Positions 24,076 to 25,860 of a DNA stretch of 41,769 bases are shown piece after piece. Every line of letters starts with the position of its first letter. The first letter of the stretch is position 1. The DNA comes from an uncultured Clostridia bacterium (GTDB lineage: Bacteria; Bacillota; Clostridia; TANB77; CAG-508): contig CALXAQ010000113.1 of assembly GCA_944386335.1 (NCBI GenBank), positions 1-41,769 on the forward strand, read 5' to 3'. Both the position numbers and the translations under genes were made by a program. The notes beneath the pieces are model-generated. The model did no database searches. It was not told the DNA's origin and saw only the letters and a program-made list of their open reading frames with translations.

Positions 24076-25860
24076 ATGAAGAATATTTATAGAGATTATA
24101 ATTGTGCAGAATTAAGCTTAAAAAATGTAGGAGAAACAGTAAAACTTGCTGGTTGGGTGCAAAGAATTCGTAATTTAGGGTCTATGCAGTTTATAGATTT
24201 AAGAGACCAATTTGGCATTACGCAAATTGTTATTTCTGAAAAACAACCATATGTGCAAAAAAAAGCGAAGGAATTAGTCACAGAATGTGTAATATCTGTG
24301 GAAGGAATTGTTTTAGAACGTGCTAGTAAGAATACAAAAATTCCTACAGGAGAAATAGAGATTGAAGCAAAAAAAATAGAGGTACTTGGAAAATGTAAAA
24401 ATGTACTTCCTTTTGAGGTAAATTCAGAAAAAGCAGATATTGCATCTGTAAAAGAAGATTTGAGATTGGAATATCGCTTTTTGGATTTGAGAAATGATAA
24501 ATTGCATGAAAATATTTTATTCCGTTCTAAAGTGTTAAAAGCACTAAGAGATAAAATGGATTCCTTAGGATTTAGCGAAGTTCAAACGCCTATTTTAGCT
24601 AATTCTTCACCAGAAGGGGCAAGAGATTTTTTAGTACCAAGCAGATTACATCCAGGTGAATTTTATGCACTTCCACAAGCACCACAACAATTTAAGCAAT
24701 TGCTAATGGTAGCAGGTTTTGATAAATATTTTCAGATTGCACCATGCTTTAGAGACGAGGACCCTAGAGCAGACAGAGCACCAGGGGAATTTTATCAATT
24801 GGATTTTGAAATGAGTTTTGCTACACAAGAAGATGTATTTGCAGTACTAGAAGACATTTTCACTTCTATTTTTAATCAATTTACAAATTGGAAAGTAGAC
24901 GAGGCACCTTTCAAACGTATTCCATATAAAGAGGCAATGGAACTATATGGAATAGATAAGCCAGATTTAAGAAACCCATTAATCATACAAGAGGCAACAG
25001 AAATTTTTAAAGAGGTAGAATTCAATGCATTTAAAGGCAAACGAGTAAAAGCCATTGTAGTACCAGAAGGAGCTGTGCAAACAAGAAAATTCTTTGACCA
25101 AATGACCACTTTTGCTGTAGAAGAAGTGGGTGCAAAAGGTCTTGCATGGGTAAAAATAGAAGAAGAAGGACCTACAGGTGGAATTGCAAAATTTATAGAG
25201 GAAGAAACATTAACCAAACTAAAAGAAGAGTTAGGAGCAAAAGTAGGAGATAGCATATTTTTTGTGGCAGATGAAAAATTAGAAACAGTGCAAAAAATTG
25301 CTGGACAAATTAGAATAGAGTTAGGAAAGAGATTAGATATTTTAGAAAAAGATACCTATCGTTTCTGCTTTATTGTAGATTTCCCAATGTATGAATATAA
25401 CGAAGAAAAAAAAAAAATCGATTTTAACCATAATCCATTTTCTATGCCACAAGGAGGTATGGAAGCACTTCTTTCTCAAAATCCATTAGAGATTTTGGCG
25501 TATCAATATGATGTGGTATGCAATGGTTATGAAATGGCTTCAGGAGCAGTAAGAAACCATGACCCAGAGTTAATGGTAAAAGCATTCGAAATAGCAGGAT
25601 ATCCAGAAAAAGAGGTAGAAAGCAGATTTGGAGCATGATATAATGCATTCCAATATGGGACACCACCACATGCTGGAGCAGCTCCAGGAGTAGATAGAAT
25701 GATTATGTTATTAAAAAATGAGGAAAATTTAAGAGAAATTATTGCTTTTCCAAAAAATAAAAAAGCAAGAGATTTATTGATGAGAGCACCAAGTAAAGTA
25801 ACCAAAGAACAATTAGAAGAGGTACATATTCAAATAATAGAAAAGAACAATGAAGAATAG
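24076..25860 (+). CDS. aspS: Aspartate--tRNA ligase with an in-frame TGA at 25636-25638
   Basis: Motifs [53 protein letters not shown] and [11 protein letters not shown]. After the TGA the same frame continues for 73 codons through motif 3 ([30 protein letters not shown]) to TAG 25858-25860. ATG 24076 follows AGGAGGA. Confidence 0.9.

Follow-up and report, generated by a model that had tools for sequence, protein, structure and literature searches.

An in-frame TGA in one of two aspS genes of an uncultured Clostridia genome stems from assembly error or a strain-private knockout rather than from recoding

A bacterial-type aspartate--tRNA ligase gene (aspS, copy 1) occupies positions 24076..25860 on the forward strand of the window, by which we mean the whole 41,769-nucleotide stretch of DNA that was analysed, and its 594-codon frame is interrupted at codon 521 by a TGA (25636..25638). 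The start codon, an ATG at 24076, is in frame with the TGA and stands 8 nt downstream of an AGGAGG. The surrounding bases (25624-25659, aga ttt gga gca TGA tat aat gca ttc caa tat ggg) are as written in an earlier reading of the window, which had been made from the letters alone; as that sequence-only reading also stated, the frame goes on for another 73 codons past the TGA (25639..25857) and ends at a TAG (25858-25860). This post-stop part is in frame, well conserved and carries class II motif 3, so that the motif falls downstream of the stop.

A Pfam search placed tRNA-synt_2 (PF00152) at 24454-25761, spanning positions 2-308 of the 308 in the model with one TGA inside the match. When the TGA was read through, the protein matched both bacterial-type aspS equivalog models over its full length, with 785 bits for NF001750 (residues 3-590; cut-off 443) and 630 bits for TIGR00459 (cut-off 374); in this assembly, the TGA at codon 521 keeps the frame from running unbroken through motif 3. 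Exact look-ups of the truncated 520-aa product and of this strain's full-length Leu-521 protein returned no match, to which little weight is attached.

The divergent neighbour of aspS is asnS (22471..23868, reverse strand), and the conspecific gene is annotated with PF01336 and PF00152. An inverted repeat (CTGCCAAA...TTTGGCAG, 24024-24055) separates a promoter-like TATAAT from the ribosome-binding site in the short leader of aspS; it matched no Rfam family and may be an attenuator or a protein-binding hairpin. No T-box, SECIS or riboswitch was found near aspS at Rfam gathering scores, and the Rfam matches in the window consist of the tmRNA and two tRNAs.

The interrupted codon was compared with its counterparts in conspecific and related sequences. 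Four contigs of the same species (L233-L236, from samples ERZ24773480, ERZ27336983, ERZ27336972 and ERZ24773297) are 99.65-99.86% identical to the window at the nucleotide level, two of them having been compared over 21.8 kb; in all four, base 25637 is T and aspS is intact at 594 aa. Codon 521 encodes Leu in 29 of 29 orthologues from the genus and order (TTA in 23, CTA in 3, TTG in 2, and one by alignment only), the relatives, among them Clostridium sp. CAG:567 and Ca. Merdicola, being uncultured Clostridia of the gut. The 31-nt context of the TGA, its middle base left free, was also searched for in public contigs from metagenomes and genomes, and T was found at that base in 106 of 106 stretches. 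The 90%-identity protein cluster to which this gene belongs contains two 594-aa members which differ from this protein by 3 or 4 residues; both have Leu521, and the four conspecific contigs are those that encode them. Apparent stops within the aspS genes tabulated for relatives turned out to be natural stops near the C-terminus, and were rejected as in-frame stops. One conspecific contig, L234, has an 8-nt insertion (AGGAAGAG) after window position 27308, just past a 78-codon ORF (27071-27307).

The TGA is a T>G change at position 25637 (TTA>TGA) that is private to this assembly; G was seen here, and T in all other sequences examined. The stop conservation that read-through would predict is lacking, with TGA in 0/4 conspecific contigs, 0/29 orthologues and 0/106 public contigs. 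The sequence-only reading had placed the TGA at a normally hydrophobic (Leu/Phe) position, and the relatives do have an invariant Leu there. It had also proposed that either read-through or recoding was required, or that the base was a TTA-to-TGA substitution or error; given that the relatives are all Leu, mostly TTA, and that four other samples of the species carry TTA, the second proposal stood and the first did not. A sense codon at this site was one of the two observations which that reading had itself named as speaking against recoding, and other assemblies of the species show exactly that.

The genome to which the window belongs measures 1.23 Mb, has 30% GC and is assembled in 154 contigs (N50 9.3 kb), of which the window (C113) is the longest; it is rated 96.9% complete. 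Long ORFs were compared in both directions with 1.32 Mb of the closest relative (G010); the screen kept the longest ORF per place under strict flank identity, and was followed by curation by eye. At least seven in-frame stops in real genes were found per 282,317 aligned residues here, vs none per 267,129 in G010 and none per 86,790 residues in 106 loci of relatives; under equal rates, the occurrence of all seven in this genome has p = 0.0034. Four are TGA, replacing Leu, Arg, Trp and Arg: that of aspS, an AA>TT doublet in fabF (C147:25215-25216, AAAAGA>AATTGA), a TGG>TGA change in a patatin-like gene (C117:1226) and one in truB (C143:2901). The remaining three are TAA, in polC (C17:8016), rnr (C16:4456) and a membrane protein gene (C31:4243). 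The stops in aspS, fabF and the patatin-like gene are mid-contig; the distance to a contig end is 89-711 nt for the other four, and 89-221 nt for those in truB, rnr and the membrane protein gene; these last three were compared with G010 only. Conspecific contigs have intact fabF, keep the Trp codon of the patatin-like gene and have an intact polC of 1475-1481 aa. The survey of in-frame TGA in other conserved genes that the sequence-only reading had proposed thus yielded four including aspS, but the three mid-contig ones are absent from conspecifics and their meaning is inconsistent.

Further observations were made on two of these genes. Short tracts at C147:25935-26049 (fabF) and 27883-27997 (accC) show 5-10 differences from conspecific contigs; once the fabF comparison was extended to two contigs from a species that is 95% identical, only the adjacent position 26064 was unique to this genome, and the fabF tract appears to match that species. 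Such tracts reflect either between-species recombination or chimeric assembly in conserved genes. The patatin-like gene (L245:1301-2153; C117:857-1570 in this genome) is split in the conspecific contig into an N-terminal piece and a 237-codon piece, the latter present as the same 237-codon stop-to-stop piece in G010, and the split may represent another recoding site.

The polC lesion bears directly on the quality of the assembly. Within 70 nt (C17:7987-8055, 711 nt from a contig end), polC carries six private changes, all six non-synonymous and including TTA>TAA and a Pro>Leu replacement; ten of the other 11 private polC changes are synonymous, and one is Ile>Val. Because a fixed TAA in the sole polC is impossible for a population, the assembly must hold artefactual clusters of bases, and this cluster in single-copy polC is almost certainly an assembly artefact. 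Frameshifts are not inflated in the same way; those in long genes all lie at CGG in both genomes, with the possible exception of one on C148 that may instead mark the boundary of a gene.

A similar clustering was seen in aspS. Besides the TGA, the gene has five private bases, which are clustered and radical, with none synonymous: a double change GAA>TAT (E59Y; 24250..24252, forward strand), absent from the four conspecific contigs, and a triple G>A change, GAAGGA>AAAAAA (25408..25412, forward strand), which converts EG445-446 to KK, removes a Gly that is near-invariant in relatives and creates a run of twelve A (25406-25417) seen only in this assembly, where the conspecific contigs read GAAGGAAAAA. 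Over the 21.8 kb that were compared, 17 substitutions are private, and aspS, with 8% of that length, has six of them (p = 0.0017). Those outside aspS (5 synonymous, 4 non-synonymous and 2 intergenic) look like normal natural polymorphism. The possibility that the private aspS changes came from chimerism with a sister species was rejected, as Y59, KK445-446 and the stop occur in no relative.

On a longer time scale, copy 1 shows no decay. The dN/dS on its terminal branch in this genome is 0.074, vs 0.027 and 0.067 in two sister species; only 3 of its residues differ at genus-invariant positions; and across the 28 aligned codons past the stop, 6/6 of its own-specific differences from the sister species are synonymous third-position changes. 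The copy has therefore not been decaying over the whole terminal branch.

Together these data indicate that the TGA either is an error of assembly or marks a knockout, confined to this strain, of one of its two aspS copies, and that it is not a recoding signal. According to the first of these readings, the one-base T>G lesion at 25637 would be a consensus or assembly error in a fragmented metagenome-assembled genome, and the real organism would carry TTA (Leu), as does every other sampled member of its species. This reading is supported by the private allele, by changes that are multi-base, radical and never synonymous, as in the polC cluster, by the fragmented assembly and by the lack of long-term decay; we infer that this base belongs to the same class of error, and judge the chance that it does to be about even or slightly better. 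Several observations count against it. The site is in the longest contig, 16 kb away from the closer of its two ends, and the private changes elsewhere in the window have the appearance of natural polymorphism. The excess in aspS is not explained by a uniform error rate but agrees roughly with neutral drift in a copy that is dispensable: 2.5 changes are expected since the conspecific split, and the probability of at least 4 events is 0.23. Finally, the mid-contig in-frame stops are TGA in 3/3 cases, while 27% of random nonsense changes are TGA (p = 0.019).

Several of these observations lend weight to a real, strain-private nonsense allele, according to which copy 1 was recently inactivated and a second aspS charges tRNA-Asp, perhaps with a trickle of read-through of the first; we regard this as a substantial possibility that falls somewhat short of an even chance. 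An intact second aspS, named by the sequence-only reading as the other observation which would speak against recoding, does exist. This gene (aspS-2, C21:4831-6573) is 58% identical to copy 1, retains motifs 2 and 3 and scores above the cut-offs of both aspS equivalog models (747 bits for NF001750, 608 bits for TIGR00459), and the contig that carries it is syntenic with G010. Possession of both copies is the rule in the genus, being found in most species; a few genomes have copy 1 alone, and one 84%-complete genome has copy 2 alone. The private-change excess thus sits in a gene with a back-up and, at 6/17, fits neutral drift since the conspecific split; the TGA site is mid-contig; each mid-contig stop is TGA, which leaks more easily than the other stops; and the genome, at 1.23 Mb, is the smallest of the genus sample (1.2-2.0 Mb).

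The identity of the copy that was hit argues the other way. Of 24 genomes of the genus, 23 carry copy 1, whereas six lack copy 2, one of these being 100%-complete. In a phylogenetic tree, copy 1 clusters with the aspS of three other families of the order, in which the gene is single, and is therefore the vertically inherited gene; copy 2 forms a long branch beside the single aspS of two genomes from one other family. Loss of the order-wide copy in favour of the accessory one would be unusual. In addition, the allele was unseen in four other samples of the species, the private aspS changes are multi-base and transversion-rich, like the impossible polC cluster, none is synonymous, and the branch dN/dS of 0.074 implies that any inactivation must have been very recent.

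If the TGA is real, a little read-through is plausible. The sole tRNA-Trp(CCA) found in the genome, whose anticodon agrees with that given in the sequence-only reading, is encoded at 7444..7518 on the reverse strand. Its anticodon stem has 4 bp, with U27 and C43 unpaired and four pairs formed by 28-31 with 39-42, and closes a 7-nt loop; the tRNA also contains a U11:A24 pair. Such 4-bp-stem tRNA-Trp(CCA) species are reported to be common in bacteria and to accompany lower UGA stop usage; read-through of UGA in E. coli is reported to rise about 2.5-fold when its tRNA-Trp has a 4-bp stem, and G24A is known to enhance it as well (PMC13092985). Low-level UGA read-through has no plausible source here other than this tRNA, and on the strength of its predicted structure some full-length L521W enzyme could plausibly be made from a real TGA allele. 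Its sequence is the same in G010, which rules out a strain-specific suppressor change in tRNA-Trp; since G010 has the tRNA without in-frame UGA, we regard it as a background trait of the lineage, with no evidence of its use.

A stronger proposal is that the tRNA-Trp(CCA) supports functional read-through that yields useful full-length AspRS (L521W), an early step toward UGA=Trp. The two structural features of the tRNA, the TGA identity of all three mid-contig stops, the TGG>TGA change in the patatin-like gene, which would be silent under Trp decoding, and the modest share of long ORFs ended by UGA (108 of 958 ORFs of at least 150 codons, or ~11%) are all in its favour, but the proposal is nonetheless highly improbable. 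Among the 267,129 aligned residues of G010, which has the same tRNA, no in-frame UGA occurs, and 106 loci of relatives are free of it too; the three mid-contig TGAs replace Leu, Arg and Trp and so have no consistent meaning, and none of them occurs in conspecifics. RF2 (prfB, C138:6-572) is present with its SPF and GGQ motifs (GGQHIN), its N-terminus lost at the contig end, and at least two release-factor matches were obtained in 36 of 40 relatives in a Pfam PCRF search; because RF2 is present, the ribosome would normally stop at the aspS TGA. Long open in-frame stretches are no commoner after ORFs ended by TGA (13.4%) than after those ended by TAA (11.6%) or TAG (11.1%). The base directly after the aspS TGA is U, which constitutes a strong termination context (PMC5289835). 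The broader version of this idea, in which the 4-bp stem and A24 make UGA unusually leaky throughout the lineage and in-frame UGA persist in real populations, important genes included, at an ambiguous stage toward UGA=Trp, with RF2 retained, is likewise very unlikely; were it true, the UGAs of aspS, fabF and the patatin-like gene would be a snapshot of a UGA=Trp intermediate in a free-living gut Clostridia lineage.

UGA otherwise behaves as a stop. The sequence-only reading had argued against a global reassignment of TGA, and the presence of RF2 strengthens its case. Both of the TGA-terminated ORFs that it cited were confirmed: one ends inside a terminator hairpin (15744-15746, reverse strand), and in the other the TGA is the ordinary stop of a TauE-like gene (35131..35133, forward strand) which has the same end in conspecific contigs. 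Trp is encoded by TGG throughout, as it had noted, with 2000 TGG codons in long ORFs genome-wide. The tRNA with anticodon UCA that it had suggested looking for was not found among the 30 tRNAs identified, nor was a tRNA-Sec; this set is incomplete, the Ala, Asn, Asp, Ile and Val tRNAs being missing from the assembly.

Global reassignment was accordingly rejected on ORF statistics, RF2 and the tRNA set; the hallmarks of a UGA-reassigned code (tables 4 and 25), namely loss of RF2, a tRNA-UCA and many conserved in-frame UGA with UGA no longer serving as a stop, are all missing here, as are those of selenocysteine, since neither a tRNA-UCA nor a tRNA-Sec is among the 30 tRNAs found, there is no SECIS, and homologues have Leu rather than Cys or Sec. 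Programmed recoding of any such kind (selenocysteine, a suppressor tRNA or global reassignment of TGA) has in its favour the bare fact of an in-frame TGA followed by conserved sequence, and on present evidence is effectively refuted by the tRNA set, the want of any Rfam element at the site, an unremarkable RNA fold downstream of the TGA (z = -2.1), the Leu of all relatives, RF2, the 108 long ORFs that end in TGA and a stop that is not kept even within the species.

The window also contains zero-frame CGG codons at +1 frame junctions, at 1378(+), 20806(+), 27648(-) and 33257(+), and the sequence-only reading had counted these together with the TGA as five disruptions. That grouping is misleading, because the CGG sites are a clade-wide +1 phenomenon and the TGA is private. 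CGG is the rarest codon of the genome (51 of 269,577), and no tRNA-Arg(CCG) was found among the 30 tRNAs; 33 of the 72 zero-frame CGG in long ORFs lie at a +1 frame junction, vs 1.6-4.8% for the next 14 codons, and the fourth base at these junctions is always A or T (CGGA/CGGT). In the independently assembled loci of relatives, 20 of 43 CGG are at a junction, and the mfd site is conserved in G010 and in a further relative (G007). In the NodB deacetylase gene, relatives have AAT GGT at the site where AAT C GGT is found in the window. The aspS TGA has none of these properties, involving no CGG and no frame change but a substitution only; the CGG +1 sites are a conserved phenomenon unrelated to it.

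The result is mainly of value as a negative one and as a warning about quality: the aspS TGA should not be counted as evidence that stop codons are recoded in this lineage, and a real allele would be an ordinary knockout of one of two redundant aspS genes. With private stops in polC, fabF, rnr, truB and aspS, annotations and pseudogene counts derived from this genome will be inflated.

Compared with known systems, the TGA resembles the errors and premature stops of low-coverage, fragmented metagenome-assembled genomes in that the lesion is private and accompanied by other private stops, a non-synonymous cluster lies in an essential single-copy gene, and four of seven stops are near contig ends; it differs in its position in the middle of the longest contig and in the local enrichment of private changes in aspS. 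It also resembles a recent nonsense pseudogene of a duplicated aminoacyl-tRNA synthetase, as there are two full-length aspS genes of which one has a premature stop and the other is intact, but the stop here has struck the ancestral copy, which is found throughout the order. Bacteria that possess two AspRS genes include Deinococcus radiodurans and Thermus thermophilus (PMC4206432); in contrast to such two-AspRS bacteria, both copies here are bacterial-type (NF001750 and TIGR00459), rather than one bacterial and one archaeal-type non-discriminating enzyme. The system of 4-bp-stem tRNA-Trp(CCA) (PMC13092985) is matched in both structural features of the tRNA and in the identity of the stop, yet relatives share the tRNA without in-frame UGA, RF2 is present, UGA ends about 11% of long ORFs, and there is no evidence that such decoding is used here. 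Codes 4 (Trp) and 25 (Gly) have in common with this genome a small size, a low GC content and an in-frame UGA in a conserved gene, and are set apart from it by RF2, the lack of a tRNA-UCA, the 2000 TGG codons, the working of UGA as a stop and the replacement of Leu by the in-frame UGA. The CGG(A/T) +1 sites, like the TGA, interrupt conserved genes in the window; they are systematic and some are conserved across species, whereas the TGA is a single private base change.
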